DNA of 64,000 nt from Eledone cirrhosa. Its lineage: Eukaryota. The notes below the pieces were generated by a model. The model saw only the letters and a program-made list of their open reading frames with translations. It made no database searches and had not been told where the DNA came from. The translations under genes and the position numbers were made by a program. Positions 27,195 to 52,989 of this stretch are shown here, in pieces. The stretch lies in the NCBI GenBank assembly GCA_964016885.1, contig CAXHJY010001389.1, positions 62,001 to 126,000 on the forward strand, in the 5' to 3' direction. How positions within the stretch are numbered: position 1 is the first letter of the stretch; each line of letters opens with the position of its first letter.

Positions 27195-27301
27195 GGCTCT
27201 GGATTTTGAATATAAATGTATTAAAGACAAAGGACATTATTTGGAGAACGAATGTAACATGCCTGTTGACTGGCAAGAATCATATATAGAACATGATTGT
27301 G
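27195..27301 (+). CDS. Exon A of a Cys-rich repeat protein (phase 2 to 1): ALDFEYKCIKDKGHYLENECNMPVDWQESYIEHDC
   Basis: Acceptor ttttatctccaatcAG, donor GTGAGT, 107 nt, open frame, ends TGT-G like exons C, E and G. Confidence 0.8.
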
Positions 27302-28846
27302 GTGAGTAACAAAATGTTGGATAGTACTGCACTATTGTTGAATAGTAGTTTAGGATTTGTTCTTGTTTGTTCAATGCCCCGAATTGTTATTGTTTTCATG
27401 ACTGAATAATAATAATATTATAATAATATTATTAATATTCAGTTGATTTGCAAGCAAACAGCCTCATAACACCATGTGTGTTTTCTAGATGACTGACATC
27501 ATCCTTTAGTTTCACCAGTAACAGAGAGAAAACAGTTGACAATTGTTTTGGAGTTATTGCCCCTTAACAACACTATATATCCCATCGTCACAGCTACTCA
27601 CTGGAACTGCTAAGAATACATAGTACTCTCAAAGTTATACATCGGCTGAGTAGCATAATTTGCATACTAAGTGATTTTACAGCCAGCTTTACCAAAAATT
27701 AAAAACAAAATTTGTTTTCACTCTAATGTAATGGATAGCTAAACGAACCAAATATTAATAATATCATTATAGTATAATTCTTATTCACTCATTAATATGT
27801 TTAGGTATCCACCATGTTAGAGCAAAAACAGGTAAAACAATATAATATAGAATTATTAACAACTCAATAATTTTTTTCAACTATTTTCTAAAATATTTTG
27901 TTTTGAGTTATCACATCAGGTTTGGTATTGAAATATCTTTGAAGAAATTTTATCATGTTTACACTTGTTAATTGTTGTTATGATAATTATAATAGCAATT
28001 AATTATATTTTAAAAACAGATATAGCAGTAGTGTTTTCTTATCATTTTATTTGGGTTTAGTTGTTAGGAGATAAACACTGTCCTTTATTTTAAGCTCAAT
28101 TTCTACTCTAAGTAAAGCTGGAAAATATTGATCGAGAGTTAAAATCAAAATAAAACAAAAAGCCTCTAACTCTTAACTCACCATCTTAAATGTTTTAGTG
28201 TTTAATTTGTTTATGTCTTTCACTTTGTAAAATTTTATAAGTATTCAATAAATTGATGATATACAGAAAGTCTTTATTCTAACCAGTGTTTTCACAGAGT
28301 ATTTAGATACTCATGGTTTCAGATTAACTCTTAAGAAAGATAATGAATTATAGAAGCTTTTTATGTTATAATTTAATTTAGGATTCTATAAATTGGTTAG
28401 TAATTTTCAAGGACCAAAATGATACACTCATCTTAACTGATTAATAACAGTACAGCAATGGTACCTCTAGTTCAAAATAGAAACTTGCTTTATATAAATA
28501 AATAAAAGAACATTCTTAGTAGAATAAATCAACTGAGAGACTTTGACTTGAGGATTCTTCCTTCAATGCATTAGTATTGTTAATAAAATGTTATGGGTAA
28601 TATTTACCCTTTTAAAGGGAATATACATGTTGATAAGCAAGAGTAAGTTATTTGGTGATAAAAAAGATCTATGTTACATTATGAATGGAAAGATCTTACT
28701 TTGTGACATTTAGGTTGATGCTTTAGTAAAAAAGATACTTTTTGTCAGAAAATATGTTTATGAAAGGATGCTGCTTTTCTCAAAACAAACCTTTTTTTTA
28801 GGACTATATTTCTGATGTTTAAATTCATTATTCATGCCTATTACAG

Positions 28847-28913
28847 TGGATCGTTGTTATAACCATGGGAAACCAAATTTGGATTTGGAAATCTCAAACA
28901 AATTAAAATGCGA
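28847..28913 (+). CDS. Exon B (phase 1 to 2): (V)DRCYNHGKPNLDLEISNKLKC
   Basis: Acceptor ctattacAG, donor GTAAGT, 67 nt, phase-compatible with A and C, ends TGC-NN like exons D and F. Confidence 0.78.
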
Positions 28914-28937
28914 GTAAGTAGTTTTTATCATATAATT

Positions 28938-29110
28938 CATCATCATCTCATCATCTCATTTTACGTCCACTTTTCCCTGCTTGCAAGGGTGGGACGGGAA
29001 CTGATTCTGGCTTGATTTCTACAGCTGGATGCCCTTCCTAACACCAACCTCATTTACAGTGAGTGCAGGGTGCTTTTTTGCCGTGGCACCTCCACGACCA
29101 CTTTGCAGTG
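28938..29110 (-). mobile_element. Short, internally deleted RTE 3'-UTR fragment
   Basis: Matches the RTE 3' UTR (CTACAGCTGGATGCCCTTCCTAACACCAACC) with a (CAT)n-like end. Confidence 0.75.
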
Positions 29111-29134
29111 GAATGATAGGGACCCCAGTCCCTA

Positions 29135-29280
29135 TCATCTCATTTCTACAGCTGAGTAAACTGGAGCAATGTGAAATAAAGTGTCTTGCTCAAGGAAACA
29201 ACACATCACCCGGTCTGAGAATTGAACTCACAACCTTTCGATTGCAAGGCCAATGCTCTAACCACTAAGCCATGTGCCTC
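29135..29280 (-). mobile_element. tRNA-derived CORE-like SINE
   Basis: The reverse strand reads GGCACATGGCTTAGTGGTTAGAGCA (A-box), GAGTTCAATTC (B-box) and CCTTGAGCAAGACACTTTATTTCAC (CORE-like). Confidence 0.78.
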
Positions 29281-30239
29281 CAATTACATTGATATATTTA
29301 ATGAGAAACATATTAAGAGAAATATTCCTTAGTAAAACGTGTCAAACATTTTGGTGGGTTTAGTTGTCAAACAAATGTATTTTATTTTTAAAAATGAAAC
29401 ATAACTTCTCAACACATTAACTTTTAATGTCCTGTACCACATGAAACCACATTAGCAAGATTTTTTTGAGAAGTACAAAGAAAACAAAAAAAGAGGACTC
29501 TCACTGCATCACATTAAATATTAAGTCTTTATTCTGACACTGCATATTTTCACAATGATTTACCCACTAATAATGATACTATAGAATTAACAGACAATTT
29601 TTAGATATTTTCTGCTAAACAATTGCTGGATGTTAAAATTTGATGGTAGAATAATGTATCAAGCAAGGTTTTAGAGAAATTAACTATGATCCATAATTAA
29701 TTTAAATATAACATACTTTCTAGTGATCAATAAATAAACCACTAATCATCTTTGCTGCATTGAGGACCTATCTAAAGCAGTGGAGAAAGTTGTATGGTGT
29801 TTGTTACAACCTGTCACATAATTTGAAATAAGTATGGACTGTGTTGTAGAAAATACAAGTTGAGCAATTTTTTTTTATTGTGGTCAGAGCAAGAAGTGTC
29901 AAAACTAGATTTGTCAGCTTACTAAACTTATCATCATCATCACCATCATCATTATTGTTTAACATCTGCTTTCTCTTCTAGCAAACTGTAATATATTTGG
30001 GAGAATGGGACACATAATTGGCAGAAGAGGGCACACATTGTTGAGTTAGCCTAGGGTGCTAAATACTAGCCCTGGTTTTTATTCAAGCAAGTTAATTAAC
30101 TTTCCTCTGCTCAGTCTATCTAATTGGTAGAAGTAGCACAAAGAGACACAGTGGAATCTCTATACAATGGATAACTGTTTCTTTGATGATTGTTCATGGA
30201 TACCTGTTTCTTTAGATGCTTGTTCTGTCAGCTCTAACA

Positions 30240-30680
30240 ATAAGTGTTTCAGTTGTTTAACAAAGGGAATGGTTTGTTCATAAAATTAACATGTCCTTTG
30301 TGCATGAATTATAGGGTCATAGTGTCAAGTCTTGTTCAGTTTATGATATTGTTGAACCAGGGTTTTCTTTTTCTGCTTTTCTTCAACCCCTTCAACTGTG
30401 CCCTGGAAAATGGTTATAGACAGAGTGTGATGACAGGATATATGTGTGTACCAGGAGAGCTTTGGTTGTTTCACTGTCATAAGAGTGTTTCTTGCTTTCC
30501 AGTATATTTAGTGACTTGCTGCCTGACAAAGCTATATGTCTTGTGCTTTGTATGTGGGATACATAGCAGGTTTCTGAAGCATTTGAAATTAAATGCCTGG
30601 GTTCTTCATTCCATGTCAGTTGTAAGTGTTCAGGTTTTGTCCCCATAGAAAAGGATGAAAATCACTAGGTGCTTATACAG
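30240..30680 (-). mobile_element. Old degenerate RTE-type LINE fragment
   Basis: The minus strand reads YGDKT*TLTTDME*RTQAFNFKCFRNLLCIPHTKHKT, resembling the RTE C-terminal region. Confidence 0.6.
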
Positions 30681-30713
30681 TTTAAAGTTATTTAATTCAT
30701 AATGTGAATGCTA

Positions 30714-31020
30714 ATAGCTTAGTGGTTAGGGTGTTTGTCCCATGATTGTAAGGTTATGTGTTCAATTCCCAGCTGTGACTTGTGTCTTTGAGCAAAGCAC
30801 TTTATCTCACTATACTCCAATTTATTCAACTGTAAAAAATGAGTTGTATCTGTAATTAAAAGTGTCAGTCTTGTTAGTCTTGTCACACTGAATCATCTTG
30901 AGAATTACATTCATTTTGCACAAGTTTGTAGAATGTTCAGCAATTTTCATGTTACTTTCATGAGTTGACTGTTCTGTTAGTCAAACAAATGGAACATTCA
31001 TCATAGAGACTGTCAAAAGT
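30714..31020 (+). mobile_element. tRNA-derived CORE-like SINE
   Basis: AGCTTAGTGGTTAGGG, GTGTTCAATTCC and CTTTGAGCAAAGCACTTTATCTCAC; same family as 29135-29280. Confidence 0.7.
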
Positions 31021-31156
31021 CTAACAGAATGTATTTAATTTACAGTACATAAAAATATTGATAACTTCAGTTGGAGCAAGTATATGCTTGACATTCATCA
31101 GTTGCTGAGAGATGAAAAGCAGATACAATCCTGGGGAAATTTTGGAGATGACATTA

Positions 31157-34100
31157 AGTACTGTCTATCATATCTACCATAGTACTTCACTTTCTATCAT
31201 ATCTACCATAGTACTTCACTGTCTATCATAGTACTTCACTTTCTATCATATCTACCATAGTACTTCACTGTCTATCATATCTACCATAGTACTTCACTGT
31301 CTATCATAGTACTTCACTTTCTATCATATCTACCATAGTACTTCACTTTCTATCATATCTACCATAGTACTTCACTGTCTATCATAGTACTTCACTTTCT
31401 ATCATATCTACCATAGTACTTCACTGTCTATCATAGTACTTCACTTTCTATCATATATACCATAGTACTTCACTGTCTATCATATCTACCATAGTACTTC
31501 ACTGTCTATCATATCTACCATAGTACTTCACTGTCTATCATAGTACTTCACTTTATATCATATCTACCATAGTACTTCACTGTCTATCATATCTACCATA
31601 GTACTTCACTGTCTATCATATCTACCATAGTACTTCACTGTCTATCATATCTACCATAGTACTTCACTTTATATCATATCTACCATAGTACTTCACTGTC
31701 TATCATATCTACCACAATACTTCACTTTCTATCATATCTAGCATAGTACTTCATTGTCTATCATATCTACCATAGTACTTCACTTTCTATCATATCTACC
31801 ATAGTACTTCACTGTCTATCATATCTACCATAGTACTTCACTGTCTATCATAGTACTTCACTTTATATCATATCTACCATAGTACTTCACTGTCTATCAT
31901 ATCTACCATAGTACTTCACTGTCTATCATATCTACCATAGTACTTCACTTTATATCATATCTACCATAGTACTTCACTGTCTATCATATCTACCACAATA
32001 CTTCACTTTCTATCATATCTACCATAGTACTTCATTGTCTATCATATCTACCATAGTACTTCACTTTCTATCATATCTACCATACTACTTCACTGTCTAT
32101 CATATCTACCACAGTACTTCACTTTATATCATATCTACCATAGTACTTCACTGTCTATCATATCTACCATAGTACTTCACTTTCTATCATATCTACCATA
32201 GTACTTCACTTTCTACCATATCTACCATAGTACTTCACTTTCTACCATATCTACCATAGTACTTCACTGTCTATCATATCTACCATAGTACTTCACTGTC
32301 TATCATATCTACCATAGGACTTCACATTCTATCAAATCTACCATAGTACTTCATTCTCTATCATATCTACCATAGTACTTCACTGTCTATCATATCTACC
32401 ATAGTACTTCACTTTCAATCATATCTACCATGGTACTTCATTGTCTATCATATCTACCATAGTACTTCGCTTTCTATCATATCTACCATAGTACTTCACA
32501 TTCTATCATATCTACCATAGTACTTCACTGTGGATCATATCTACCATAGTACTTCACATTCTATCATATCTACCATAGTACTTCACATTCTATCATATCT
32601 ACCATAGTACTTCACTTTCTATCATATCTACCATAGTACTTCACATTCTATCACATCTACTATAGTACTTCACTTTATATCATATCTACCATAGTACTTC
32701 ACATTCTATCATATCTACCACAGTACTTCACTGTCTATCATATCTACCATAGTACTTCATTGTCTATCAAATGTACCATAGTACTTCACTTTCTATCATA
32801 TCTACCATAGTACTTCACATTCTATCATATCTACCATAGTACTTCACATTCTATCATATCTACCATAGTAGTTCACTTTCTATCATATCTACCATAGTAC
32901 TTCACATTCTATCATATCTACCATAGTACTTCACTTTATATCATATCTACCATAGTACTTTACATTCTATCATATCTACCATAGTACTTCACTGTCTATC
33001 ATATCTACCATAGTACTTCACATTCTATCATATCTACCATAGTACTTCACATTCTATCATATCTACCATAGTACTTCACATTCTATCATATCTACCGCAG
33101 TACTTCACTGTCTATCATATCTACCATAGGACTTCACTGTCTATCATATCTACCATAGTACATCATTGTCTATTATATCTACGATAGTACTTCACTTTCT
33201 ATCATATCTACCATAGTACATCACATTCTGTCATATCTACCATAGTACTTCACATTCTATCATATCTACCATAGTACTTCACTGTCTATCATATCTACCA
33301 TAGTGCTTCACATTCTATTATATCTACCATAGTACTTCACTTTCTATCATATCTACCATAGTACTTCACATTCTATCACATCTACCATAGTACTTCACTT
33401 TATATCATATCTACCATAGTTCTTCACTGTCTATCATATCTACCATAGTACTTCACATTCTATCATATCTACCATAGTACTTCACATTCTATCATATCTA
33501 CCATAGTACTTCACATTCTATCATATCTACCGCAGTACTTCACTGTCTATCATATCTACCATAGGACTTCACTGTCTATCATATCTACCATAGTACATCA
33601 TTGTCTATTATATCTACGATAGTACTTCACTTTCTATCATATCTACCATAGTACATCACATTCTGTCATATCTACCATAGTACTTCACATTCTATCATAT
33701 CTACCATAGTACTTCACTGTCTATCATATCTACCATAGTGCTTCACATTCTATTATATCTACCATAGTACTTCACTTTCTATCATATCTACCATAGTACT
33801 TCACATTCTATCACATCTACCATAGTACTTCACTTTATATCATATCTACCATAGTACTTCACTGTCTATCATATCTACCATAGTACTTCACATTCTATCA
33901 TATCTACCATAGTACTTCACATTCTATCATATCTACCATAGTACTTCACATTCTATCACATCTACCATAGTACTTCACTTTATATCATATCTACCATAGT
34001 ACTTCACTGTCTATCATATCTACCATAGTACTTCATTGTCTATCAAATCTACCATAGTACTTCACTTTCTATCATATCTACCATAGTACTTCACATTCTA

Positions 34101-37100
34101 TCATATCTACCATAGTACTTCACATTCTATCATATCTACCATAGTACTTCACATTCTATAATATCTACCATAGTACTTCACTTTCTATCATATCTACCAT
34201 AGTACTTCACATTCTATCATATCTACCATAGTACTTCACTTTATATTATATCTACCATAGTACTTTACATTCTATCATATCAACCATAGTACTTCACTGT
34301 CTATCATATCTACCATAGTACTTCACATTCTATCATATCTACCACAGTACTTCACTGTCTATCATATCTACCATAATACTTCACATTCTATCATATCTAC
34401 CATAGTACTTCACTGTCTATCATATCTACCATAGTACTTCACTGTCTATCATATCTACCATAGTACTTCATTGTCTATCATATCTACCATAGTACTTCAC
34501 TTTATATCATATCTACCATAGTACTTCACATTCTATTATATCTACCATAGTACATCACATTCTGTCATATCTACCATAGCACTTTACATTCTATCATATC
34601 TACCACAGTACTTCACTGTCTATCATATCTACCATAGTACTTCACTGTCTATCATATCTACCATAATACTTCACTTTCTATCATATCTACCACAGTACTT
34701 CACTTTCTATCATATCTACCACAGTACTTCACTGTCTATCATATCTACCATAGTACTTCACATTCTATCATATCTACCATAGTACTTCACATTCTATCAT
34801 ATCTACCATAGTACTTCACTTTCTATCATATCTACCATAGTACTTCACATTCTATCATATCTACCATAGTACTTCACTTTCTATCATATCTACCATAGTA
34901 CTTCATTGTCTCTCATATCTACCATAGTACTTCATTGTCTATTATATCTACCATAGTACTTCACATTCTATTATACCTACCACAGTACTTCACTTACTAT
35001 CATATCTACCATAGTACTTCACTTTCTATCATATCTACCATAGTACTTCACTTTCTACCATATCTACCATAGTACTTCACATTCTATCATATCTACCATA
35101 GTACTTCACATTCTATCATATCTACCATAGTACTTCACTTTCTATCATATCTACCATAGTACTTCATTTTCTATCATATCTACCATAGGACTTCACTGTC
35201 TATCATATCTACCATAGTACTTCACATTCTATCATATCTACCATAGTACTTCACTGTCTATCATATCTACCACAGTACTTCACTTTCTATCATATCTACC
35301 ATAGTACTTCACATTCTATCATATCTACCATAGTACTTCACTGTCTATCATATCTACCACAGTACTTCACTTTCTATCATATTTACCATAGTACTTCACA
35401 TTCTACCATATCTACCATAGTGCTTTACGTTCTATCATATCTACCATAGGACTTCACATTCTATCATATCTACCACAGTACTTCACTGTCTATCATATCT
35501 ACCATAGTACTTCACTTTCTATCATATCTATCATAGTACTTCACTGTCTATCATATCTACCATAGGACTTGACTCTCTAACATATCTACCATAGTACTTT
35601 ACTTTCTATTATATCTATCATAGTACTTCACATTTTATCATATCTACCATAGTACTTTACATTCTATCATATCTACCATAGTACTTCATTGTCTATTATA
35701 TCTACCATAGTACTTCACATTCTATTATACCTACCACAGTACTTCACTTACTATCATATCTACCATAGTACTTCACTTTCTATCATATCTACCATAGTAC
35801 TTCACTTTCTACCATATCTACCATAGTACTTCACATTCTATCATATCTACCATAGTACTTCACATTCTATCATATCTACCATAGTACTTCACTTTCTATC
35901 ATATCTACCATAGTACTTCATTTTCTATCATATCTACCATAGGACTTCACTGTCTATCATATCTACCATAGTACTTCACATTCTATCATATCTACCATAG
36001 TACTTCACTGTCTATCATATCTACCACAGTACTTCACTTTCTATCATATCTACCATAGTACTTCACATTCTATCATATCTACCATAGTACTTCACTGTCT
36101 ATCATATCTACCACAGTACTTCACTTTCTATCATATTTACCATAGTACTTCACATTCTACCATATCTACCATAGTGCTTTACGTTCTATCATATCTACCA
36201 TAGGACTTCACATTCTATCATATCTACCACAGTACTTCACTGTCTATCATATCTACCATAGTACTTCACTTTCTATCATATCTATCATAGTACTTCACTG
36301 TCTATCATATCTACCATAGGACTTGACTCTCTAACATATCTACCATAGTACTTTACTTTCTATTATATCTATCATAGTACTTCACATTTTATCATATCTA
36401 CCATAGTACTTTACATTCTATCATATCTACCATAGTACTTCACATTTTATCAAATCTACCATAGTACTTTATATTCTATCATATCTACCATAGTGCTTCA
36501 CTTTCTATCATATCTACTCTCATTCTCCTCCTGTTGACGCCAACGCACTTAGGATGCCATCCAGTGCAGACAGGCCTCAGAAAGGCTTACGCGCCGGTTC
36601 GACCAGCACCGCCTTGCTTGTTTTCGTGTGGCCTCCAAACCCCACAGTGGTGCCTGGCTCAATGCCCTGCCCTCCTTCGCCACTGGCATGCAGCTAGACA
36701 ACCATAGCCTGCGAATCGGCGTTTACCTGATGCTTGGCCTCCAGATCTGCGAGCCACACCAAAGTCGGTGCGGTTCCACCGTGGACTGTTTCGGGCTCCA
36801 CCCGCTTTCCTGTCGCCACAGTGCCGGCCATATCCCACGCCATACTGCCCTCAACGAGCTCATTAAGCATGGCTTGGACGCTGCAGGATTCTCTTCCCAG
36901 TGCGAGCCAGTGTGGCTGGATCGTGGGGACGGCAAAAGGCCAGATGGCATGACCATCTTCCCGTTCCGCGATGGTAAACCCCTCGTCTGGGATGCCACTC
37001 TCTGCAGCCACAACCTGGTGCAGTCTGCGACTGACCCAGGTTCTGCTGCACGTTGGGCCGAGGGAGCCAAACTCCTCGAATACCGGTCGTTTTCCAACAG

Positions 37101-38826
37101 GTTTGCGGTCGTTCTCCTGGCAGTGGAAACTTCTGGTGTCCTCGGACCCAGGGCTACCTCCTTACTCACCACCATAGGCACTGAGCTGGCCAGCCGTAGG
37201 TGTGAGCCCCGCGAGTTGTCTATCATATCTACCATAGTACTTCACATTCTATCATATCTACCATAGTACTTCACATTCTATGATATCTACCATAGTACTT
37301 CACTTTCTATCATATCTACCACAGTACTTCACATTCTATCATATCTACCATAGTACTTCACATTCTATCATATCTACCATAGTACTTCACTTTCTATCAT
37401 ATCTACCATAGGACTTCACTTTCTATCATATCTACCATAGTACTTCACTTTCTATCATATCTACCATAGTACTTCACATTCTATCATATCTACCATAGTA
37501 CTTCACTTTCTATCATATCTACCACAGTACTTCACTTTCTATCATATCTACCATAGGACTTCAGTTTCTATCATATCTACCATAGTACTTCACTGTCTAT
37601 CATATCTACCATAGTACTTCACTTTCTATCATATCTACCATAGTACTTCACATTCTATCATATCTACCATAGTACTTTACTGTCTATCATATCTACCATA
37701 GTACTTCACTTTCTATCATATCTACCATAGTACTTCACTGTCTATCATATCTACCATAGTACTTCACTGTCTATCATATCTACCATAGTACTTCACTGTC
37801 TATCATATCTACCATAGTACTTCACATTCTATCATATCTACCATAGTACTTCACTGTCTATCATATCTACCATAGTACTTCACATTCTATCATATCTACC
37901 ATAGTGCTTCACATTCTATTATATCTACCATAGTACTTCACTTTCTATCATATCTACCATAGTACTTCACATTCTATCACATCTACCATAGTACTTCACT
38001 TTATATCATATCTACCATAGTACTTCACTTTCTATCATATCTACCATTGTACTTCACTTTCTATCGTATCTACCATAGTACTTCACATTCTATCATATCT
38101 ACCATAGTACTTCACATTCTATCATATCTACCATAGTACTTCACTTTATATCATATCTACCACAGTACTTCACATTTTATCCTATCTACCATAGTACTTC
38201 ACATTCTATCATATCTACCATAGTACTTCATTGTCTATCATATCTACCATAGTACTTCACTGTCTATCATATCTACCATAGTACTTCACATTCTGTCATA
38301 TCTACCATAGGACTTCACTGTCTATCATATCTACCATAGTACTTCACTGTCTATCATATCTACCATAGTACTTCACTGTCTATCATATCTACCACAGTAC
38401 TTCACATTCTATCATATCTACCATAGTACTTCATTGTCTATCATATCTACCATAGTACTTCACTGTCTATCATATCTACCATAGTACTTCACATTCTATC
38501 ATATCTACCATAGTACTTCACTGTCTATCATATCTACCATAGGACTTCACTGTCTATCATATCTACCATAGTACTTCACATTCTATCATATCTACCATAG
38601 TACTTCACTGTCTATCATATCTACCATAGTACTTCACATTCTATCATATCTACCATAGTACTTCACTGTCTATTATATCTACCATAGGACTTCACATTCT
38701 ATCATATCTACCATAATACTTCACATTCTATCATATCTACCATAGTACTTCACATTCTATCATATCTACCATAGTACTTCACATTCTATCATATCTACCA
38801 TAATACTTCACATTCTATCATATCTA
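31157..38826. repeat. 29-bp minisatellite array (CTATCATATCTACCATAGTACTTCAC[TG/TT/AT]T), ~7.0 kb of repeat interrupted at 36518-37216
   Basis: Periodicity read directly; 20-bp deletion variants occur near the 5' end. Confidence 0.97.
36518..37216 (+). mobile_element. CRE-like non-LTR retrotransposon fragment (Zn-knuckle + restriction-like endonuclease region)
   Basis: GC-rich island. ORF 36628-37266 carries PHSGAWLNALP, CGSTVDCFGLHPLSC, RHTALN, RGDGKRPDG, LVWDAT and VETSG, motifs I recognise as the CRE-clade RLE C-terminus. Confidence 0.8.
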
Positions 38827-38886
38827 TTCCTCCTAAAATATGTTAAATTCTTATTTTAATTGCAATATATTGTTATTGTTTTTTAG

Positions 38887-38975
38887 TGAATTGAACCAAT
38901 ATAATAAAACTTTAGTGGAAAACAACTGCAAGATAACACATGACATGAAGGAAAAATATGAGGAATTAAAATGTG
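38887..38975 (+). CDS. Exon C (phase 2 to 1): (D)ELNQYNKTLVENNCKITHDMKEKYEELKC
   Basis: Acceptor ttgttttttAG, donor GTAAGA, 89 nt, open frame (inside track ORF 38840-39061). Confidence 0.82.
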
Positions 38976-39830: not shown

Positions 39831-40079
39831 CCCTTTCCTTACCATATTTATCATGAAATACACAGTATTTGAATTAAATAATGAAGAATTTGAAGGGATT
39901 TACTGAAATCATTAATTGTTTCATTATTAGGGTGGTATTTGTAACCCAACCTAAAAGAAAAAGGTTTTTACATTAAATAATGTTGAAATGTTATAATTTA
40001 AATGAAAAAAACCCCTTTAAAATGAGGGAATCTGTTTCATACAACCTGAGGCAGTTTGGGCAGGCTGGTATCAAAAGAG
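39831..40079. mobile_element. piggyBac-like MITE
   Basis: TTAA on both sides (39827-39830, 40080-40083); imperfect TIRs CCCTTTCCTTACCA / TGGTATCAAAAGAG. Confidence 0.55.
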
Positions 40080-40603
40080 TTAATAAAGATTAATATTGAT
40101 CTAAGCCCAACATAAAACAACATAATTAATTATTTTTCTGAAATAAACTAAATAGACAAGAAAATGAAATGACACTGGTCATGAGAGTTAGAAAGTTGAG
40201 TAGAAATACTATCTAATATAGACTAATACTAAGTTGAATCTAGTAGGGAAGGCTGTCTCTTCAGAGAGTTTCTGAGGGCTCTACCAAGGAACACATGCAA
40301 TCAAGGCTGGTGATACCATTAAAGCTAACTAACCAGGTTGCAGACTTTAGAGGGGCACATCACTGACCCTTAAAAGGATGACTGTTTAAATTAAATATAT
40401 CAATAAAATATAACACAAGAAAGTGGTGTGTCTAGGAAGTAGTTACATAGTTTAAGACTTCCACCCCTTAAGATAATAATAAAAAAATAGATACAAACCT
40501 TTAGCTTGTTGTTTGACATCACTTTGAATCTGAATGAAATTGTATTGTGGTTCTAAGCATTGTTTTAATTGTTGTAATTTTAATATAATATTCATGCTGA
40601 GAG

Positions 40604-41028: not shown

Positions 41029-41098
41029 ATACATTGTGCAATGAAAGAATGTGCGAGTCTGTATCTGTATTTGGAAGTGACAGAAAGGAGGTCTGCGG
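41029..41098 (+). CDS. Exon D (phase 1 to 2): (D)TLCNERMCESVSVFGSDRKEVC
   Basis: T-rich tract then aaatacAG, donor GTGAGT, 70 nt, phase-compatible with C and E. Confidence 0.78.
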
Positions 41099-41177
41099 GT
41101 GAGTATGTTATGGATATTTTAATTATAAGTTGATTTTCAAAGATATATATAGATCGATTGGTTATTGATTAGGCGAA

Positions 41178-41283: not shown

Positions 41284-41432
41284 GAAGAGTAAAGATTGAA
41301 GGTACCTATTTACGTGTGTTGTATTGAAGCGAATAACTATGTGGCTACTCTGGGAGTTTACTTAACATACCTATTGAGTACGCTGAGATGCAACCGGTAC
41401 TAGCAGCGAAACCCATGCTAGTTCTGTCAACT

Positions 41433-41466
<34 letters not shown>

Positions 41467-41822
41467 GATAAATGAAACAAAAATAAACTACAGGGATGCA
41501 AAAATACCGAGTGATACTAGGTTGACGGTATATGAAAGTAGTGTGTGATAGGAAAGAAAGGAAGTGTTTAAGGTGAGTATGGAGGTGGTGGAGGAAGGAT
41601 TTTATGTGAGGCATAGTGGATGAGAAGGAATGAGGAGTGTCTGTAGGGAGAGAAAGAGTTGTTGGAAGAGAAGGAAAGAAATGGAGCAAAATTTGAATGA
41701 CAGGTGGGTTGCGTAAGGTAAGTGTAGAAAAATAGTTGATAAATGAAGTAAATCAAACACAGGGATGCAAAAATGCAGAGCATATATAAATATATATAAA
41801 TATATATATATATATATTTCAT

Positions 41823-42712: not shown

Positions 42713-43129
42713 TCTAGCGTATTTATTTACTGTTTCTTCATAGATGTCTTTTATTCTTATAGCCTGGTCTAATTGATTTTTTGTGTGGTTAATTATGCTG
42801 ATTGGGAGTAGAGATGATGTATATATATTATCAACTAATTCTCTGGACATGCTTTACTCTATAGTATTTCGCTCTGATTAATTTATTAATTCTCCATTGA
42901 GCCACATCGTGAAAAGTTGCCAAAACACATATATACCTGTGACTTTGTTTAATTGGTGTATGTGTAAATATTTATACATATACATATATATATAAATATA
43001 TATATATATACTATAGAGTAAAGCATGTCCAATATATATATATATATATGTATCATCATCTTCATTTAATGTCCATTTTCCACGATATATAAATATATAT
43101 ATATAAAAATATATATATATATGTATTGT

Positions 43130-44744
43130 ATCATCATCATCATCACCACCGTTTTACATCCATTCTTCCATGCTAGCATGGGTTAGACGGGTTGTCCTGT
43201 TGTGGGCAGTGTCCAGTCGACTGACCATGTCTTGCTCATATGGGAACTGATTCTGGCTTGATTTCTACAGTAGGATGCCCTTTCTAACACCAACCTCATT
43301 TACAGTGAGTGCTGGGTGCTTCTTTTCCGTGGCGCCTACACGTCCACTTTACAGTGTGGGCTGGATGCTTTTTTGCCATGGCACCTCCACGGCCACTTTG
43401 CAGTGGGGGGTGTGGCGGCATATTGTCTATATGCTTCATCTTCGTCTTGTACCTGTGGGAGGGGGGGGGGGGTCGGGTCTTCTGTATTACTGTGTGATGC
43501 CAGAGGTCACGGTCGTGTGTCATCGCCTTTGAGAGGTGTAATTGGGTAAGGTCGGCTTTTATCACCTCATCCCAGGTCTTCTTGGGCCTCCCCACTCCGT
43601 GGTTTCCATCGACTTCTAGTGCTCTGCACCTTTTTATGCAGCTGTCATCTTTCATACGCATCACATGTCCATACCAATGCAACCTCATCTCCTGCACACA
43701 GTATTTGATTCCTCTTATGCTCAGTCTCTCTCTCAATTCATTTATGCTTTGCCGTTCGCGTATATTACTATTACACATCCATCGGAGCATGCAGGCGTCG
43801 TTTCTCTCTAATCTACGTAAGTCTTCCACAGACAGTGCCCAAGTCTCACTACCATGTAACATTGTCGTTTGTATACACGCATCATACAGTCTGCTTTCAT
43901 TTTGAGGGAAAAGCCTTTTGCAACTAGCAGTGGCAGTAGCTCCCTGAACTTCTTCCATCCCATTCTTATACTAGTTATTGTACTTTCCGAATACCCACCT
44001 CCGCTGCTAATTCGGTCACCTAGGTAGCAGAAGCTGTCTACTGTTTCTACAGAGCCCTCCCAGAGTTTGGTAGTACTTGTTTCCTGTGGCTGTTTGCTGC
44101 TTGCTGTCCCAGCACAACTGCTACACGTGAAGCCTACATTCTTAGTTAAGCTTCCTGAGATCCCGCTACATCTCTTGTGCATTTGGGGCAGCAAATGGAG
44201 TTCCTACCTACACCTTTCCTACATACTGAGCAAGGCCATTTCCCTGAGGGGATCTGGGTTCTGTTTTCTCATCTACTTACAAGGACCTTAGTCTTTGTCA
44301 GGTTCACTTTGAGACCCTTTCTTTTTAGTCCCTGCTTCCAAGTTTGGAATTTCTTCTCTAGTTCTACCATAGATTCAGCTATAAGTGCGAGGTCATCTGC
44401 ATACAGGAGTTCCCATGGGCATCCGGTCTTAAACTCGTCTGTTATTGTCTGCAGGACTATGATGAACAGGAGAGGGCTAAGAACAGAGCCCTGGTGGACA
44501 CCGACCTGTACGCTAAATTCCTCGCAACAGTCATTGCTAATCCTAACTTTGCTGACTGCTCCACTATACATGGCTTGTACAGCTTTCACAAGCCATTCAT
44601 CTACTCCTAGTTTTCCAAGAACCCACCAGATTATAGCATGGAGAACTCTGTCAAAGGCTTTCTTGAGATCGACGAATGCCAGGTAGAGTGGCTTACTTTT
44701 AGCTAGGTACTTTTCCTGTAACTGCCTCACAAGGAAGAGGGCAT
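43130..44744 (-). mobile_element. RTE-clade LINE 3' part (subfamily B), frameshifted
   Basis: ORFs 44269-44730, 43808-44194 and 43296-43958; (CAT)n at 43130; homologous to 2613-4218. Confidence 0.9.
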
Positions 44745-45470
44745 ATCTTATGTTAACAATTTTTCATCTTGATGTAATAGTCACTTATATGACTGAATTA
44801 TTGTCGGCTTTTTGCTTACATTAATTTCTCTATTTTCATTTATATATTTAAACTCGGAGCTTTCCTTGAGTGCTTACTAATATTTGTGACTAATCCCAGT
44901 TTAAAAAAAAAAAAGCTGCGATAATATTGCTTTATGCTGAACTCCATATTTTTTGTTGAGTTTTTTTTTAATGTTTTGACTGCTGTTTCTTGTAAACAGA
45001 TTTTCTTTCATCCAGGCATCACTAGCCTGGGTCCACATGTGTTTTGTTATTTCAATTCAACACGCTGTTCACTTGCCTGCTATTAAATTCCCCTCTGGCA
45101 TCTTAGCAGTGTGATTTAGTTAACATGTTGAGCACAGCTGATGAACGACCCCAACCGTGACTAACCTCACTGAAAAGTTTCGTGAAATAGTCTTTTAAGA
45201 CTATATAGTGCATTTGCAGATTTCCCCAAATTGACGTTTAAGTATTTTTTCTTGATTTTATTTTGAGTTAAGATTGTATTGGTTTTTTTCCCCAGCTTAC
45301 ACAAAGTCTGACGATAACATTTTTCTTCTTGACTTGTTTTTAATTAAGATTGAATTATTTATCCCAAATCTTACGTTAAACATTTTTCATCTTGAGACTA
45401 TAGTCACTTATATGTCTGAATTATTGTCAGCTTTGTGCTTACATTAATTTCTCTATTTTCATTTATATAT
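44745..45470 (+). mobile_element. Non-coding partial-tandem element (623-nt unit, 103-bp direct repeats) carrying a hammerhead; retrozyme/pLTR-like
   Basis: Direct repeats 44745-44847 and 45368-45470; hammerhead at 45132-45211; 3' end runs into (TA)n. Confidence 0.68.
45132..45211 (+). ncRNA. Type I hammerhead ribozyme motif with a canonical core
   Basis: Stem I GCACAG/TAGTGC (one mismatch); CTGATGA 45138-45144; stem II ACGA/TCGT; GAAA 45184-45187; stem III ATAGTCTT/AAGACTAT; ATA triplet (cleavage predicted after 45205). Confidence 0.8.
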
Positions 45471-45479
45471 ATAAATATA

Positions 45480-45518
<39 letters not shown>

Positions 45519-45522
<4 letters not shown>

Positions 45523-45849
45523 TCATCATCATCACTGTATATGTCCATTCTTCCACGCTAGCATGGGTTAGATGGTTTGTCTTGTTGTGGGCAATGCCAG
45601 GTCGGGTGAACTTCTCTTGCTTATACGGGAACTTTTATCACATCATCCCAGGTCTTCTTGGATCTCCAAGGCTTCCATCGACTTTTAGTGCTCTCCACCT
45701 TTTTATGCAGCTGTCATCCTTCATACGCATCAATATGTCCATACCAACGCAACCTCCTCTCCTGCACACAGCATTTGATTTCTCTTATGCTCAGTCTCTC
45801 TCTTAATCATTTATGTTTTGCCATTTGCATATATTACTATTACACATCG
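45519..45849 (-). mobile_element. RTE 3' fragment with an internal deletion
   Basis: (CAT)n, the 3' UTR start and a C-terminal coding piece homologous to 3020-3240. Confidence 0.75.
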
Positions 45850-46317
45850 AAATATGTATATGTATATGTATATATAAATATATATATATATTTGTGTGTC
45901 AGTGTGTGTGTGTATATATATATAAATATATATGAAATGAATTGGTAGGAGTGTGTAAGAGATGGTCATAAAGTTGTAGGAATCTACTGCTCTCTTGCTT
46001 TGTTTTATCTATCTATAAGCATGAAACTAACAGAAATGGTTTTTGAATCCTTTCTACTTTGTAGGATGATTTTATGTTATTTGATGTTCCTATTGCCTTT
46101 CACTGTGAATTAATAGTAAGAATGTTAATTAACTCCAATAATGATACAAATATTCAATAGGTTGGACAATTAAACTATCAAAATAGTCCCATGCTATCAT
46201 GCTCACTATAATAAATGTAATGACATTTATCAGAACCCAATGTATCAATATGTTTCAAGTAGTAATTAAATAAGTGATAAAAGACTTATACTTTTATATT
46301 GCTTTGCATTATTCATC

Positions 46318-46510
46318 AATGGCTTGACAGAATTGTTAGAGCAATGTTTTATGGCATTTAATTATGGCTTTTTACATTCAAAGTTCAAATCTTGCTGAGG
46401 TCTTATTTACTTTTCTTTCTTCCAGGGTCGATACAATAAAGTAGCAGTCAAATATTTGGGTTGATATAATTGTCTCCTCAAATCACTGACTTTATGCCTA
46501 AATTAGAAGC
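46318..46510 (+). mobile_element. Degenerate SINE (26859 family)
   Basis: TTGACAGAATTGTTAGAG, AAGTTCAAATC, GGGTCGATACAATAAAGTA, TGCCTAAATTAGAA. Confidence 0.65.
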
Positions 46511-46736
46511 AATTATTCTTAATCTATTCCCTCAAGTCCCCAACATGTAGTGTACTGTTTATTTTCTCCATGTCTTCTTGCTATGTTCATATTTACAATA
46601 AATTTCAATAATACAAAAGTAATTGTATAAGTAGATATATAAGTACATTAAAAGCTGGTCAGAAATATATTATTATTCAATATTTTCAATAATTAATTAG
46701 TTTTTATTATGAAAAAATTGGTTTTTACTGTTGCAG

Positions 46737-46822
46737 CTATATATCGGAGCATATCAACTGCCTCAAAACTGCTAACTGTGTAAATCAAGAGGTCCATGAT
46801 AGATACAGTTTTTTTGAATGTG
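46737..46822 (+). CDS. Exon E (phase 2 to 1): (G)YISEHINCLKTANCVNQEVHDRYSFFEC
   Basis: Acceptor tttttactgttgcAG, donor GTAAGT, 86 nt, open frame. Confidence 0.85.
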
Positions 46823-47454
46823 GTAAGTCTTTCTCTTTTTAAATATTGTAATTTGATTAAAAATTAATTGCACTAATAAGGAAATCAGCCAAAGCTAAAC
46901 TAGCTACTTCTAAATTTGCAACTATTTAATGATTATGGTCAATGATACAGAATAAGAAGAGCTCAGCAAGTCAAGATAGTAACATATGTTCCTGGTTGAA
47001 ACTAGTTTATTTCAGTCACATTACTATGTCATTAGAAAATATCTAATTTATATTTCCCCTAAAATGATGGGATCTAATCAAAAGATTGAATATGAGCTGG
47101 GATATTTATAATCTTAGTTAAATAAAAGATCATTATTAAACATTACAGTAATGTACTGGGTAATTGCTGGCCTTGTGCCAAAAGTAGAAACAATTATTAA
47201 ACATTACAATAGCTAAACAATATTGACTCTTTAGCTTAGGATCAAGAAATTAAAAGTGAGAGGAAATAAGATGATAAAACATGACTTTCTCATGGATGAA
47301 GTGGATTCAACAGAAAATGGAATCTGGATCATGACTATAGCCCGTGAAATTGCTCCACAAGTTAAACCTTACAATTACTATAGATTTCTTATAGAGGACA
47401 CATACATTCTTAACATAGCTAGGACCCTATGACTGTTCCATCCCTTCAGAGACA

Positions 47455-47868
47455 GAAATAGGCTCAAGTGAAACCGAGAATGGAGTACTACTCCCACATC
47501 TGGGATGGTGCTGTTGCTACACATACAGATATGCTAGAGCACATCCAGAGAAAAGCTACACAGCTAGATAGTATAAAGTTCCTCACAAACTTTCTCTATT
47601 CTCTGGCACTCAGATGTCGCTGCAATGGTCTATTCTCCTTAGAACTTGCTGGTTTCAAGCCACTTTCTCTCAGACAGTTCTAACTTACACATCTCTTCTC
47701 TTCCCATCACCCATGTTATCTTCAACTCCGTAGATACCACACTAATTATTACACCAAGTCCTTCCTACCCAGAATGTCGATCATCTGGAACTTCCTCCCT
47801 GTTCATGTCTTTACCAAAGTATTAAAACTGTAACAGTTTAAGTAGAACATTAAATGCATCAATCTCTC
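47455..47868 (+). mobile_element. Old degenerate LINE 3' fragment (CR1/Jockey-type RT C-terminus)
   Basis: ORF 47468-47683 KPRMEYYSHIWDG...LEHIQRKA resembles the post-RT motif RPxxEY..xxW...LExIQR. Confidence 0.62.
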
Positions 47869-48935
47869 TGGTCTTCAGAGGTCAATGAAGACCATGGGAA
47901 CTGTCTCTCCCCTTCATATCTGGTCTCTGAGGGTCAGTGAAGACTATGGGAACTGTCTTTCCCCTTCATATCTGGTCTCTGAGGGTCAGTGAAGCCCATG
48001 GGAACTGTCTCTCCCCTTCATATCTGGTCTCTGAGGGTCAGTGAAGACTATGGAAACTGTCTCTCCCCTTCATATCTGGTCTCTGAGGGTCAGTGAAGAC
48101 TATGGAAACTGTCTCTCCCCTTCATATCTGGTCTCTGAGGGCTAGTGAAGACTATGGGAACTGTCTCTCCCCTTCATATCTGGTCTCTGAGGGCTAGTGA
48201 AGACTATGGGAACTGTCTCTCCCCTTCATATCTGGTCTCTGAGGGTCAGTGAAGACTATGGAAACTGTCTCTCCCCTTCATATCTGGTCTCTGAGGGCTA
48301 GTGAAGCCCATGGGAACTGTCTCTCCCCTTCATATCTGGTCTCTGAGGGCTAGTGAAGCCCATGGGAACTGTCTCTCCCCTTCATATCTGGTCTCTGAGG
48401 GCTAGTGAAGCCCATGGGAACTGTCTCTCCCCTTCATATCTGGTCTCTGAGGGTCAGTGAAGACTATGGAAACTGTCTCTCCCCTTCATATCTGGTCTCT
48501 GAGGGTCAGTGAAGACTATGGAAACTGTCTCTCCCCTTCATATCTGGTCTCTGAGGGCTAGTGAAGACTATGGGAACTGTCTCTCCCCTTCATATCTGGT
48601 CTTTGAGGGTCAGTGAAGACTATGGGAACTGTCTCTCCCCTTCATATCTGGTCTCTGAGGGTCAGTGAAGACTATGGAAACTGTCTCTCCCCTTCATATC
48701 TGGTCTCTGAGGGCTAGTGAAGACTATGGGAACTGTCTCTCCCCTTCATATCTGGTCTTTGAGGGTCAGTGAAGACCATGGGAACTGTCTCTCCCCTTCA
48801 TATCTGGTCTCTGAGGGTCAGTGAAGACTATGGGAACTGTCTCTCCCCTTCATATCTGGTCTCTGAGGGTCAGTGAAGACTATAGGAACTCTCTCCCCTT
48901 CATATCTGGTCTCTGAGAGCTAGTGAAGACTATGG
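47869..48935. repeat. 52-bp minisatellite, ~20 copies (GGGAACTGTCTCTCCCCTTCATATCTGGTCTCTGAGGGTCAGTGAAGACTAT)
   Basis: Period 52 read directly (47896 to 47948). Confidence 0.96.
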
Positions 48936-49084
48936 CCATTGATCTCTTTATATAGACCTGCCAATTAAAATAAATGAATAATTTCAGTAATTGAACAGTT
49001 GAAATATGTGAAATATGTTAAAATTAGTCTTAATTATTTTGTTGTTATTTACCTTTTCTCACTCCTCTCAATTTGTATTTGTAG

Positions 49085-49169
49085 GTAGCAGCTGTGATGG
49101 TGTTGCAGCAAAAACTTGTACGGATAATTTAAAAGAGACAGTAAACAGCACCAGGCAAGAACAATGCAG
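49085..49169 (+). CDS. Exon F (phase 1 to 2): (G)SSCDGVAAKTCTDNLKETVNSTRQEQC
   Basis: Pyrimidine tract then tttgtAG, donor CAG/GTAAAT, 85 nt, open frame. Confidence 0.85.
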
Positions 49170-49756
49170 GTAAATTTATAAAACTATCTTTGAAAATTAT
49201 CATATACAAGCTTAAAAGAATGTGACAAGTGCACCCAATTCCACAGTAGCAGCACTATTCGATCCTTACACCTCCAAATTAAAGAGCACATCAACACCAA
49301 CTCCTATTTCTTCCACAAACATCAAATGCTGAGACAGAGACAGTAAAATAATCACCACCATCTTGGCTACTGAGCGCAGTACTGAGAATCAATGAAGGCA
49401 CACCTGATTAAGAAACTAAAGTCTCCCATTAATAATAGAATGGAAAGAAATGTGGCACAATGTCTTAGCTAACTTGTCCAACCTAAATATACCATCATGC
49501 CAGCATCCCAGTTGTCCATTCTAATAAACATTCCTTTCCTAGCCTAATTTGGCCTGACAAATGCTAGCAGCAGATAAATTCCTTATTGGCTTTGAGTGGT
49601 TAGCTAGCAGACAAAGAATGCTTCAGACCAACAATGCTTACACACCTTTACACTTTTATGTCTGAAACATGTGTTCTTCACTACACATACACACTTACAC
49701 ACATACACACATGAATATATATACATACTCACATACTCACACATGTTGCTACACAC

Positions 49757-49959
49757 AAACAGAGCGGTTGCTGGTCCAGCAAAAATTAAGTATTAGTATT
49801 GGTGCTCTGAAATAGCGATGTACACCAGAATTTATGTACAGTATATTTGGCAGTATTCTGTATCTTTAATTAAAAATATTTTGAAGACCATTCCCTATGA
49901 GTTTTAAAGAGCACCAATACTAATACCTAATTTTTGCTTGACCGACAACTGCTCTGTTT
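49757..49959. mobile_element. MITE-like element with ~52-bp imperfect TIRs; partial inverted second copy at ~50124-50242
   Basis: AAACAGAGCGGTTG...AGCAAAAATTAAGTATTAGTATTGGTGCTCT is mirrored by AGAGCACCAATACTAATACCTAATTTTTGCT...CAACTGCTCTGTTT. Confidence 0.68.
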
Positions 49960-51376
49960 AATCAGCTCTTAAATATTACTGGAATTCTATAAGAATCCAG
50001 CTTCTATAATTCTCTACAGAAGCAAAGGAGTGATGGGTCTTGATAAACGCTAACAAGCAAGAAACAGGACTGTCGATCACTCTCGTTTGCTTTTGTCGAG
50101 AATAAGTAATTGACATAGTCACTACTTTAAAACTCATAGCAAATGGTCTTCAAAATGTTTTTAATTAAACATACAGTATATTCCCAAATATAATATATAT
50201 ACATTCATGTATACATTGTTATTTCAGAGCACCAATACTAATATATATATATGTGTGTGTTTGTAAACATACACAGAGTTTTAACACCTGGTGGAGGTAG
50301 AGAGAGGTACTCACAAGACATAATGTGTCTAGAGCATTTTATACGTGGTGGAGTATATCACTTTCCAGATCTGAAGACAACTGATTTCTTCCAGAGAATG
50401 AGAGAGCAAGACAATTAATAAAGAAATATAAAGCCAGAATCGATCTCAGGACACCATTTATCAATCTCAAAAGATGAAAGTCAAAATTGATCTTAATGGC
50501 ATTTGTTATGAGAGCATTGATATCTGAAACAAATACTGCAAAACATTCTATTCAACATCCTAATGATTCTGCCAATTGATAAAATAATAAAATATGTATC
50601 AGTCAAATGATGGGAAATAGCAGAATCTAATTTCTATTCATTCATTTCTTTGACTGCATTTCTTATTGAAGAGTAAAAATTTAGATTCTTTTAAATGCAA
50701 GGATATGAGGAAAATATTGTGAGTTATATCAACCACAACATGTCCCGTCCTGCTGGCGCCAGCTAGGTATACCAGCATTTTATCTTTTCAGGAAGCCCCC
50801 CTCCACTCCTGTGCAAAGACCCCACACGCCCTCTCAAGTCACATTGTCATTGTCAGTACGTATCAGGGGGCGGGGAGCTATTGGTGACTAATTTCTGATG
50901 CATGAAAAATACCACCACAACCAGTGGAATGCTCAATGACCATAATCACTCGATTCCGTGGTAAAAGTTACAACTGTGGTGTTGGACCATTAGTTTTGCC
51001 ACAATCCTGCTATTGTCGCACTGGTTGTGAGGGCTTTCTAAAAGGTCTGATGCAGGGCTACCACCAGGTACTATCTGGCTGGGCCTTCTAGTTTAATGTA
51101 GTGGCAACTAACGTAGCAAGGAAGACAGTGGTGATTTCAGCTGAATGCATCAACATGCTGCTTCATGCTCCCTGTTGTTACCAGTATGACCCTCACTGAC
51201 CTATATTTCCCCCTCCAGTAAACATGCCCATCTCTTCTTTCTATGTAAGTCTGGATGAAATGCTAGTGGCAAGTGTGTGGTTTTCAATAACAGATACGTT
51301 CCTTCACTATCTTCCGACTACAAAGCTAAGGAGGGAAAGCTATTGTGGTGACTCACTGCTCTTGAGACTGAGCTGA

Positions 51377-51787
51377 TCAAATGGCTCTCGCATGAGTCCT
51401 CATCTGCTGAAGGTGAGACTGGCGTTCCTCTTCAGAGTGACCTGCTCCACTGGCTCTCGCATGAGTCCTCATCTGCTGAAGGTGAGACTGGCGTTCCTCT
51501 TCAGAGTGACCTGCTCCACTGGCTCTTGCAGGAGTCCTCATCTGCTGAAGGTGAGACTGGCGTTCCTCTTCAGAGTGACCTGCTCCACTGGCTCTTGCAG
51601 GAGTCCTCATCTGCTGAAGGTGAGACTGGCGTTCCTCTTCAGAGTGACCTGCTCCACTGGCTCTTGCAGGAGTCCTCATCTGCTGAAGGCGTCGTTCGTG
51701 ATCATATTCAGACTCTGCTGCTCTAGTAACATTTTTTTCTTCTGGAAAATCGGATCTAGCGGACAGGCCGGACTTTTTTGGTGGCAT
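51377..51787 (-). pseudogene. Possible Helitron Rep/helicase N-terminal remnant with a 69-bp (23-aa) tandem repeat
   Basis: MPPKKSGLS... followed by ~4.5 copies of MRT(P/H)ARASGAGHSEEERQSHLQQ (51382-51689). Charged repeats like this precede Helitron RepHel domains, but no Rep or helicase motif is visible. Confidence 0.45.
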
Positions 51788-52112
51788 ATCGGCAGTAACA
51801 ATGATTGTTCGAACAGGGTCATGTTTGCTCTTTATATAGGTGTTATTCAGGGGAGGGTGATGCATAGAAATCGAATAACCAATCAAGTTATGAGGGGTCA
51901 ATCATGACTGATAGTGATTGGCTTCAGTTAAAATGTGTTTGCATGCGCGTGTGACAAAAGGTCAAAGGGGGCATTGTGTTGTTTAGTGAGATTGGTGGTG
52001 CTAAACTGTATGCCAGCTACATGGGAAGATGAGAAAGGCCAGCTCTATCGATTTCATTCAATAAATCCACCATTGGTGTGTTCTACGGCATCCATATATA
52101 TATATATATATA

Positions 52113-52854
52113 TATAGCTGACGTACCTAGCTTCGCTTGGATAAACAGGCGATAAGCCGTCTGTGGTTTCATACAGGCGAACTAAATGTAAACAAATCGC
52201 TGCGTAGTTAACAAAATAAATACAATGTTTATATTTTATTTTTGTAGTTCTGTTTTCCGGTGTATTTTGTGTTTTTGTATGCAAAATATTTGTACACGAA
52301 TATATAATTATATATATATAATTAATTAAAAGTTGGTTACAAGCGAAGTCAATGCAGACAGCCAGACATACAGACAGATATTATAAGTGCGCGACAGATA
52401 TTATAAGCGTGCTATGTATCTATCTAAAATGACAGAGTAAAAGAGAGAGAGTAATGTCATATATATATTATATATAATAAAGTACCAGTAATGTACTCCT
52501 CATTTTACATACGGCCGTAGGCTTTATTAATCTAGATAGAGATTGACAATATACACAGAAATTTAATCCATGATACATTAAGAAAAAAGACGATATTATA
52601 TATAAACTGCAAAATATATGAATGGTTATTGAAGCGATCGCTAACCGGAAATGTTGATATTTGAAAATTTTAAAGAAGTGAATCTTTAAATAAACAATAA
52701 AATATCTTTAATCAAGAACGATATTTAGTAGACAAAAATACCCTCACTGTCTCCCTTGGAAAACGTAACATCTATGGTGCAAATTTGGTGCCGTCTGGTC
52801 CAGCCGTTTGGCCAAAAGTTTGTTACATACGGCCGTCAGCTTTACTAATATAGA
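52113..52854 (-). mobile_element. Non-autonomous Helitron-like element (Lep1-style ends)
   Basis: The plus strand starts TAGCTGACGTACCTAGCTTCGCTTGG and ends CAAATTTGG...GGTCCAGCCGTTT...CTTTACTAATATAGAT (5'-TC on the minus strand). The end motif is duplicated internally at ~52506-52537. Confidence 0.55.
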
Positions 52855-52909
52855 TTTCTACACATCATTGTATTTTGTTAATTATTATGTCATTATTTTC
52901 TCTTTCTAG

Positions 52910-52989
52910 CTATTATAAACAAATACGTAGCTGTCATGAGGATAACAGATGTAATACAGATGACGAATATTATGAATTTCTAGAGTGTG
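52910..52989 (+). CDS. Exon G (phase 2 to 1): (S)YYKQIRSCHEDNRCNTDDEYYEFLEC
   Basis: Acceptor ttttctctttctAG, donor GTAAGC, 80 nt, open frame. Confidence 0.85.

Follow-up and report, generated by a model that had tools for sequence, protein, structure and literature searches.

The stretch under study, a window of 64,000 nucleotides of the octopod Eledone cirrhosa corresponding to positions 62001-126000 of the plus strand of contig CAXHJY010001389.1 (C1416, an unplaced 177-kb contig of the 3.0-Gb genome), holds exons 7 to 13 of a fourteen-exon gene for a predicted cysteine-rich surface protein. These seven exons had been proposed from the letters alone in an initial annotation, and all seven were recovered on the plus strand at 27195-52989, each with an AG acceptor after a pyrimidine-rich tract and a GTRAG or GTAAA donor; their lengths of 107, 67, 89, 70, 86, 85 and 80 nucleotides sum to 584, and their end phases run 1, 2, 1, 2, 1, 2, 1, the alternation that had been described. 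Spliced together, they read through 194 codons with 0 stops, against 29 and 11 in the two alternative frames, and the translation is identical with that of the earlier reader. Exon 7 (27195..27301, phase 2-1) is the second half of module 3; module 4 is made up of exon 8 (28847..28913, phase 1-2) and exon 9 (38887..38975, phase 2-1, with one N-glycosylation sequon), module 5 of exon 10 (41029..41098, phase 1-2) and exon 11 (46737..46822, phase 2-1), and module 6 of exon 12 (49085..49169, phase 1-2, with one N-glycosylation sequon) and exon 13 (52910..52989, phase 2-1), all on the plus strand. Positions 1..27194 belong to the 3' part of intron 6, with exons 1-6 (the signal peptide, modules 1-2 and the first half of module 3) upstream of the window, and positions 52990..64000 to the 5' part of intron 13, with exon 14 downstream. 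A second in-frame acceptor at window position 46701, 36 nucleotides 5' of exon 11 and present in both copies of the gene described below, would add 12 codons with two cysteines, and it is possibly an alternative splice site or a product of chance.

The start and the stop of the gene, which had been placed outside the window, were both located by extending the model into the neighbouring sequence. The coding part of exon 1 lies at C1656:100220-100274 on a separate contig, exons 2 to 6 at C1416:24102-24189, 35079-35167, 35779-35839, 40027-40115 and 41436-41511, and the coding part of exon 14, with a tail resembling a glycosylphosphatidylinositol (GPI) signal and the stop, at C1416:147494-147579, all on the plus strand. 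A scan of the 177-kb contig for exons of phase 1 or 2 ending on a cysteine returned 25 rows on the plus strand, 12 of them exons of the gene, and 4 on the minus strand, while a stricter scan of 660 kb of the chromosome-scale contig C6, which carries a second copy of the gene, returned 13 rows on the plus strand, 11 of them exons of that copy, and 0 on the minus strand. Since the scan template was drawn from the seven exons, only the five added upstream exons count as an independent result, and these keep the phase alternation going. The exon chain exceeds chance expectation. The window gene is hereafter called copy A and that on C6 copy B; despite 49 exon differences, the reading frame is unbroken in copy B, and none of the 13 acceptors and 12 donors common to the two copies is lost, and the chain together with this intact second copy supports the view that a real spliceable gene is present.

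The full model encodes 375 residues with 32 cysteines, laid out as a signal peptide, six two-exon cysteine modules (twelve exons) and a hydrophobic GPI-like tail. The signal exon has 18 codons and a phase-1 donor, with a TATA-like box about 55 nucleotides upstream, and the last exon encodes small residues, then a hydrophobic stretch, then the stop, with AATAAA sites behind it. The hydropathy maxima are found at the two ends alone (19-residue means of 1.89 and 1.93, the best middle value being 0.35). Thus, the suspected secreted or cell-surface location gained support, and the tail, judged by its layout and hydropathy, is probably a GPI anchor signal, in preference to a transmembrane helix. Each module of 50-61 residues pairs an exon of phase 1-2 with one of phase 2-1, which bears out the two-exon units bounded by phase-1 introns. 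The description of these as six-cysteine modules holds for four of the six, modules 1 and 4 having four cysteines, and the first window exon supplies only the second half of a module. By cysteine position, module 1 is without C1 and C5, and module 4 (28847-28913 with 38887-38975) without C2 and C4; from these paired losses, the pairing C1-C5, C2-C4, C3-C6 is inferred. The helical fold that had been suspected finds a weak echo in single exons folded alone, with a helix at H7-24 in exon 2 (predicted local distance difference test, pLDDT, 72) and three short helices in exon 7 (pLDDT 60). A higher-order repeat of two times three modules was considered and not supported, the pairwise scores joining the neighbours M3-M4 and M5-M6 (z 2.8, uncorrected, 15 pairs).

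Copy B is intact and occupies C6:96,798,682 to 96,857,960. In five genome searches, whose counts are lower bounds, every searched exon gave exactly two strong matches, copy A and copy B, and no further paralogue was found either there or in the 660 kb of C6. Intron 6 measures 47.7 kb in copy A vs 5.0 kb in copy B, and intron 13, which in copy A is composed largely of a 31-bp satellite, 32.5 kb vs 6.7 kb. That satellite begins 28 nucleotides after exon 13 and extends over window 53017-64000 and beyond, with about 945 copies (29 kb), copy B having about 83. Both versions of exon 7 occur between common flanks in read contigs from three sequencing runs of one sample, possibly the source sample and none of them listed as RNA: both 147-nucleotide versions in two of the three runs and the second version in the third. 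The exon-7 difference is therefore not an assembly or polishing artefact. The read-contig depth was higher for copy B in nine of nine linked comparisons, by a ratio of 1.8, as would be expected if copy A stood on one chromosome only; depth without a single-copy baseline is no copy number, however, and the ratio is not used as evidence.

The comparison with copy B displays directly the fast evolution that had been presumed; the duplicate and its mark of selection, which the window alone does not show, are the most telling part. Over 357 codons, 45 nonsynonymous differences on 873 sites and 4 synonymous differences on 198 sites were counted, corresponding to a ratio of nonsynonymous to synonymous rates (dN/dS) of 2.6 (one-sided Fisher p 0.035). 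The exons differ at 49 of 1073 nucleotides (4.6%) vs 284 of 20993 (1.4%) in aligned introns, the latter rate being taken from 22 collinear blocks chosen by hand, with unalignable intron DNA excluded. The synonymous sites are at the intron rate (p 0.35), and the nonsynonymous sites are above it (p 5e-13), as well as above the more diverged 5' introns (p 6e-5). The change is concentrated in modules 3-4, with 35 nonsynonymous differences, 1 synonymous difference and 29 of 113 residues replaced; from module 1 to module 6 and the tail, the amino acid differences number 4, 3, 21, 8, 1, 2 and 0 (39 of 357 residues), and 21 of them fall inside one 61-residue window, a clustering equalled in 0 of 5000 permutations. 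The module 3 exons differ at 26 of 183 nucleotides vs 49 of 1089 in the most diverged intron block (p 4e-6). Exon 7 is the most diverged (16 of 107 nucleotides and 13 residues, with 0 of 60 nucleotides different in its flanks), exon 9 differs at 9 of 89 nucleotides, and exon 11 is identical in the two copies. Both copies retain 32 of 32 cysteines, the splice sites, the signal exon and the tail, and neutral simulations yielded four or fewer synonymous differences together with no lost cysteine or stop in 0 of 20000 trials. Among 20 charge-changing differences, 16 vs 4 are toward basic in copy B (p 0.012); the net charge is -13 in copy A vs +4 in copy B, and that of module 3 is -7 vs +4. The best reading of these differences is a surface recognition protein under diversifying selection.

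The introns form a mosaic, with 193 differences in 7515 nucleotides of the 5' half (2.6%), 91 in 13478 of the 3' half (0.7%) and 4 in 2491 (0.16%) directly behind exon 7, so that an intron divergence of 0.16% adjoins an exon that is itself 15% different. The mosaic would fit gene conversion evening the introns and selection holding the exons apart, by analogy with the ATP1A1 R and S genes of Leptodactylus, which are described as same-orientation tandem duplicates homogenised by gene conversion, with selection holding the amino acid differences (bioRxiv 10.1101/2020.08.04.234435). As in that system, the nonsynonymous differences here exceed both the synonymous and the intron differences, and amino acid differences appear to be held against homogenisation, with tandem order and conversion being presumed for Eledone. 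The Leptodactylus case differs in concerning 12 residues of a known enzyme whose function is established and whose history spans 35 My and several species, vs 39 of 357 residues of an orphan surface protein in one genome. With one genome, a recent duplication followed by very rapid adaptation, or unequal crossover, is indistinguishable from the conversion reading. The conotoxin genes are mollusc cysteine-framework genes with a conserved signal exon, conserved intron ends and a hypervariable exon (PMC3862624); the hypervariable exon beside conserved intron ends is shared with the gene described here, but the conotoxins are short secreted venom peptides of large families, in contrast to a predicted membrane-tethered protein of 375 residues in two copies.

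Accepted tentatively, as the leading one among several readings, is that of an intact fourteen-exon gene in two likely tandem copies, encoding a likely GPI-anchored six-module helical surface protein whose likely binding face on modules 3-4 has been driven apart by a pathogen or parasite partner. Each two-exon module would fold as a small, probably three-helix bundle tied by the C1-C5, C2-C4 and C3-C6 bridges; the product would be secreted and GPI-anchored, and the six modules may form a tethered stalk whose near-invariant base would be modules 5-6 together with the tail, modules 3-4 likely carrying the contact face. The copies would stand head to tail, with conversion levelling the introns and selection maintaining or driving the exon differences. 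Since change selected at one surface face together with a flip of charge suggests that the partner itself is changing, our guess for the latter is a fast-changing foreign protein, most likely of a pathogen or parasite, for which the copies might serve as alternative receptors or decoys.

Several points weigh against this reading. The guess of a pathogen partner draws on the general behaviour of fast-evolving surface proteins; splicing and expression are deduced from DNA; the dN/dS test against synonymous sites alone reaches only p 0.035 with one sequence pair, and the intron rate depends on the hand-chosen blocks. The helices come from single-exon models, and short peptides often turn out helical. 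Instead of a GPI signal, the tail may be one transmembrane helix followed by a polar cytoplasmic end of 7 residues, the 19-residue mean of 1.93 allowing both, and the tandem order would be firmer with a joining overlap.

The same gene, fold and selection would be compatible with a sperm or egg protein as the partner, the copies matching different partner variants, and this gamete reading is ranked a close second after the pathogen or parasite, being on its own rather doubtful. A signal peptide, a GPI-like tail and a cysteine-rich ectodomain would suit it, in the manner of the GPI-anchored Juno or Bouncer, and amino acid change above intron change with a shift of charge is a feature shared with abalone lysin. 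However, the 12 gene exons scanned singly matched 0 Pfam families, and the divergence is seen between two copies of one animal, not between species. The fast genes of octopuses include gamete, defence and surface genes, with gamete-recognition genes in the fast tail between sibling species and a Juno-like gene at dN/dS 1.69 (PMC13669787). A bolder version, which we regard as unlikely, is an octopod recognition locus with a tandem six-module helical receptor of oppositely charged binding faces, one copy being present on one chromosome only, which would act as a switch for gamete compatibility or for self and non-self; the acidic form might even bind the basic one.

The arrangement of the copies bears on the next rival, in which balancing selection would maintain the two sequences as divergent alleles of one locus, in the way of a self/non-self locus, and C1656 plus C1416 would be a haplotype that was not purged. 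Copy A is split, with exon 1 on C1656 and the rest on C1416, and the end of C1656 dovetails into the start of C1416. A 200-N scaffold gap lies in C6, 837 nucleotides 5' of the ATG of copy B, and the microsatellite array reaching this gap resumes on the same strand over the initial 8.4 kb of C1656. Further arrays of this motif are absent from the 660 kb of C6 and from C1416, and one small cluster of 11 occurs inside C1656. The simplest arrangement is C6, C1656, C1416, copy B, most likely a head-to-tail duplication whose upstream copy, on contigs of about 287 kb in all, would be missing from the chromosome scaffold. No sequence overlap was found that links the terminus of C1416 with C6 beyond the gap, and the tandem order is therefore inferred. 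Two gaps of 200 N (C6:96,668,800-999 and 96,797,646-845) are present in this part of C6, and the sequence nearby shares transposon copies of 99% identity or more with C1656 and C1416, in line with these contigs being close to the gaps; the flank searches (two of 10 kb, one shorter) were dominated by transposon matches. The allelic explanation could appeal to the unplaced state of the window contig, to the 3' introns being 99.3% alike, to the two versions found of each exon searched, and to C1656, which could be upstream DNA missing at the C6 gap. However, the homology between the copies is confined to the surroundings of the transcription unit, the 28 kb of C1416 3' of the gene aligning to the 100 kb of C6 3' of copy B by repeats alone, and that C1416 stretch holds, toward the contig end (C1416:163726-166404), a segment 95-98% identical to the DNA found 3-5 kb upstream of exon 1. 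This divergence equals that of the 5' introns and is what a head-to-tail duplicate should show. Alleles are accordingly considered improbable, and two likely tandem copies are retained. On the 3' side of copy B, an opposite-strand gene with spaced EGF exons (C6:96,895,984-96,958,444, minus strand; Pfam EGF in 4 of 4 tested), which we take to be agrin- or perlecan-like, offers a useful synteny anchor for orthologues.

The statement that no family could be recognised agrees with homologue and Pfam searches with exon-sized queries. A word-indexed homologue search with a nine-exon alignment gave 93 candidates, none at E<=10, a search with exon 11 alone gave no candidate, and the best E among PDB sequences was 0.2. 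Two HMMER matches among 1.84 billion representatives were rejected as summed short repeats without the cysteine pattern. These blanks are weak, because the queries were pieces of 21-42 residues. The NRN1 profile (PF15056), run exon by exon on the genome, gave nothing over the cut-off (best E 2.0, elsewhere), and the search with DUF19 (PF01579), another family named for comparison, gave no match, its controls being equally silent, so that this blank shows nothing. No description of the gene was found in the literature outside subscription papers; an orthologue could be listed with the 662 fast genes in the supplements of PMC13669787.

A still less probable explanation is an RGM- or neuritin-like co-receptor with an endogenous ligand of the BMP/TGF-beta type or a neural one, duplicated in tandem, with one copy retuned afterwards and no arms race. 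The N-terminal domain of RGM (RGM-N) is a three-helix, three-disulfide domain in GPI-anchored BMP co-receptors (PMC7354924). The spacing in module 5 (4/13/8/5/13) resembles that of RGM-N (4/21-28/8/7/21), the layout of six cysteines with a C-x8-C core is alike, as would be the helices, the disulfides and the GPI-anchored surface location, which are predicted here, and a local hhalign alignment covers this core. Against the RGM-type spacing C-x4-C ... C-x8-C-x7-C-x21-C, C3-x8-C4 is found in five of the six modules, and the other gaps are shorter or variable. However, the membership suggested for comparison failed in the profile test: a hidden Markov model from 107 of 120 RGM proteins scored 0.5-5.0 bits against 12 modules, the best value being equalled by 13 of 300 cysteine-fixed shuffles and one of the 12 modules falling below 5% against such shuffles, and hhalign gave a probability of 0.4% (E 0.16). 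The modules here are also shorter (50-61 residues) with shorter loops, six in tandem, the RGM C-terminal domain is absent from the 375-residue model (signal, six modules, tail), and each module is split behind C3 by a phase-2 intron missing in the octopus RGM. The gene is not filed as RGM because the profile test failed and the octopus RGM is without this inner intron, and since the RGM-N profile test failed, the likeness to RGM-N and neuritin rests on cysteine spacing. The genome has its own RGM, found on C5 and not at this locus in a Pfam genome search with RGM_N (PF06535), and 16% nonsynonymous change in one module is rarely driven by conserved endogenous ligands. Neuritin (CPG15) is a small six-cysteine helical GPI-anchored protein with one conserved module, in contrast to the six fast-evolving modules here; in human NRN1, the signal exon is presumably followed by a phase-1 intron and the codon after the third cysteine interrupted by a phase-2 intron, as here, a position for which no literature source was found. 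The true RGM gene lies at C5:106,850,511-714 on the minus strand and shares 92% identity with its Octopus sinensis counterpart and 80% with that of Argonauta, which places the animal among the octopodids, and two named octopod RGM models have 760 and 805 residues, vs about 450 in most other animals listed.

Very improbable is a decaying duplicate under relaxed constraint, with the amino acid excess due to drift: the copy A introns are much larger and filled with retroelements and satellites, and most octopus genes with dN/dS>1 are read as relaxed or noisy in PMC13669787, but such a reading is disfavoured here because of the intron comparison and the preserved cysteines, as drift should leave exons no more changed than introns, the opposite of what was observed, and neither the 32 cysteines nor the splice sites, the reading frame, the signal exon or the tail have suffered any loss, only 50 of 20000 neutral simulations having kept the cysteines without a stop.

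The gene is thus regarded as real and apparently undescribed, its evolutionary pattern as of a known kind, and its protein as an orphan variant of the small GPI-type cysteine-helical surface proteins. To our knowledge, few cephalopod surface proteins for the recognition of pathogen, self or gamete have been characterised, and the locus offers a candidate, with selection marking the likely binding face (modules 3-4) and with the two copies as a natural variant pair of opposite charge, suited to binding tests. Should the module turn out to be a bundle of the RGM-N/neuritin type, the locus would show how a fast-evolving receptor can be built from that small domain, shuffled as a repeat of two exons.

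The introns carry repeats and mobile elements of their own. Inside intron 6, an intact frame of 830 codons (window 13937-16429, plus strand), to which Pfam gave no family, is presumably a Penelope-type retroelement with reverse transcriptase and GIY-YIG motifs, and pieces related to it occur also in C1416 and C1656. It is bracketed by two blocks (window 10521-13574 and 17714-20810), about 7.2 kb apart and almost the same in sequence, each composed of TA/TG repeats with unique spacers, which look like a local duplication or like terminal repeats of the Penelope-like element. Two further retroelement frames of opposite orientation (window 3551-5452, minus strand, and 6907-8193, plus strand) each carry RVT_1 followed by a PHD finger, and a 29-bp satellite occupies intron 8 of copy A (window 31160-38826) and of copy B alike.

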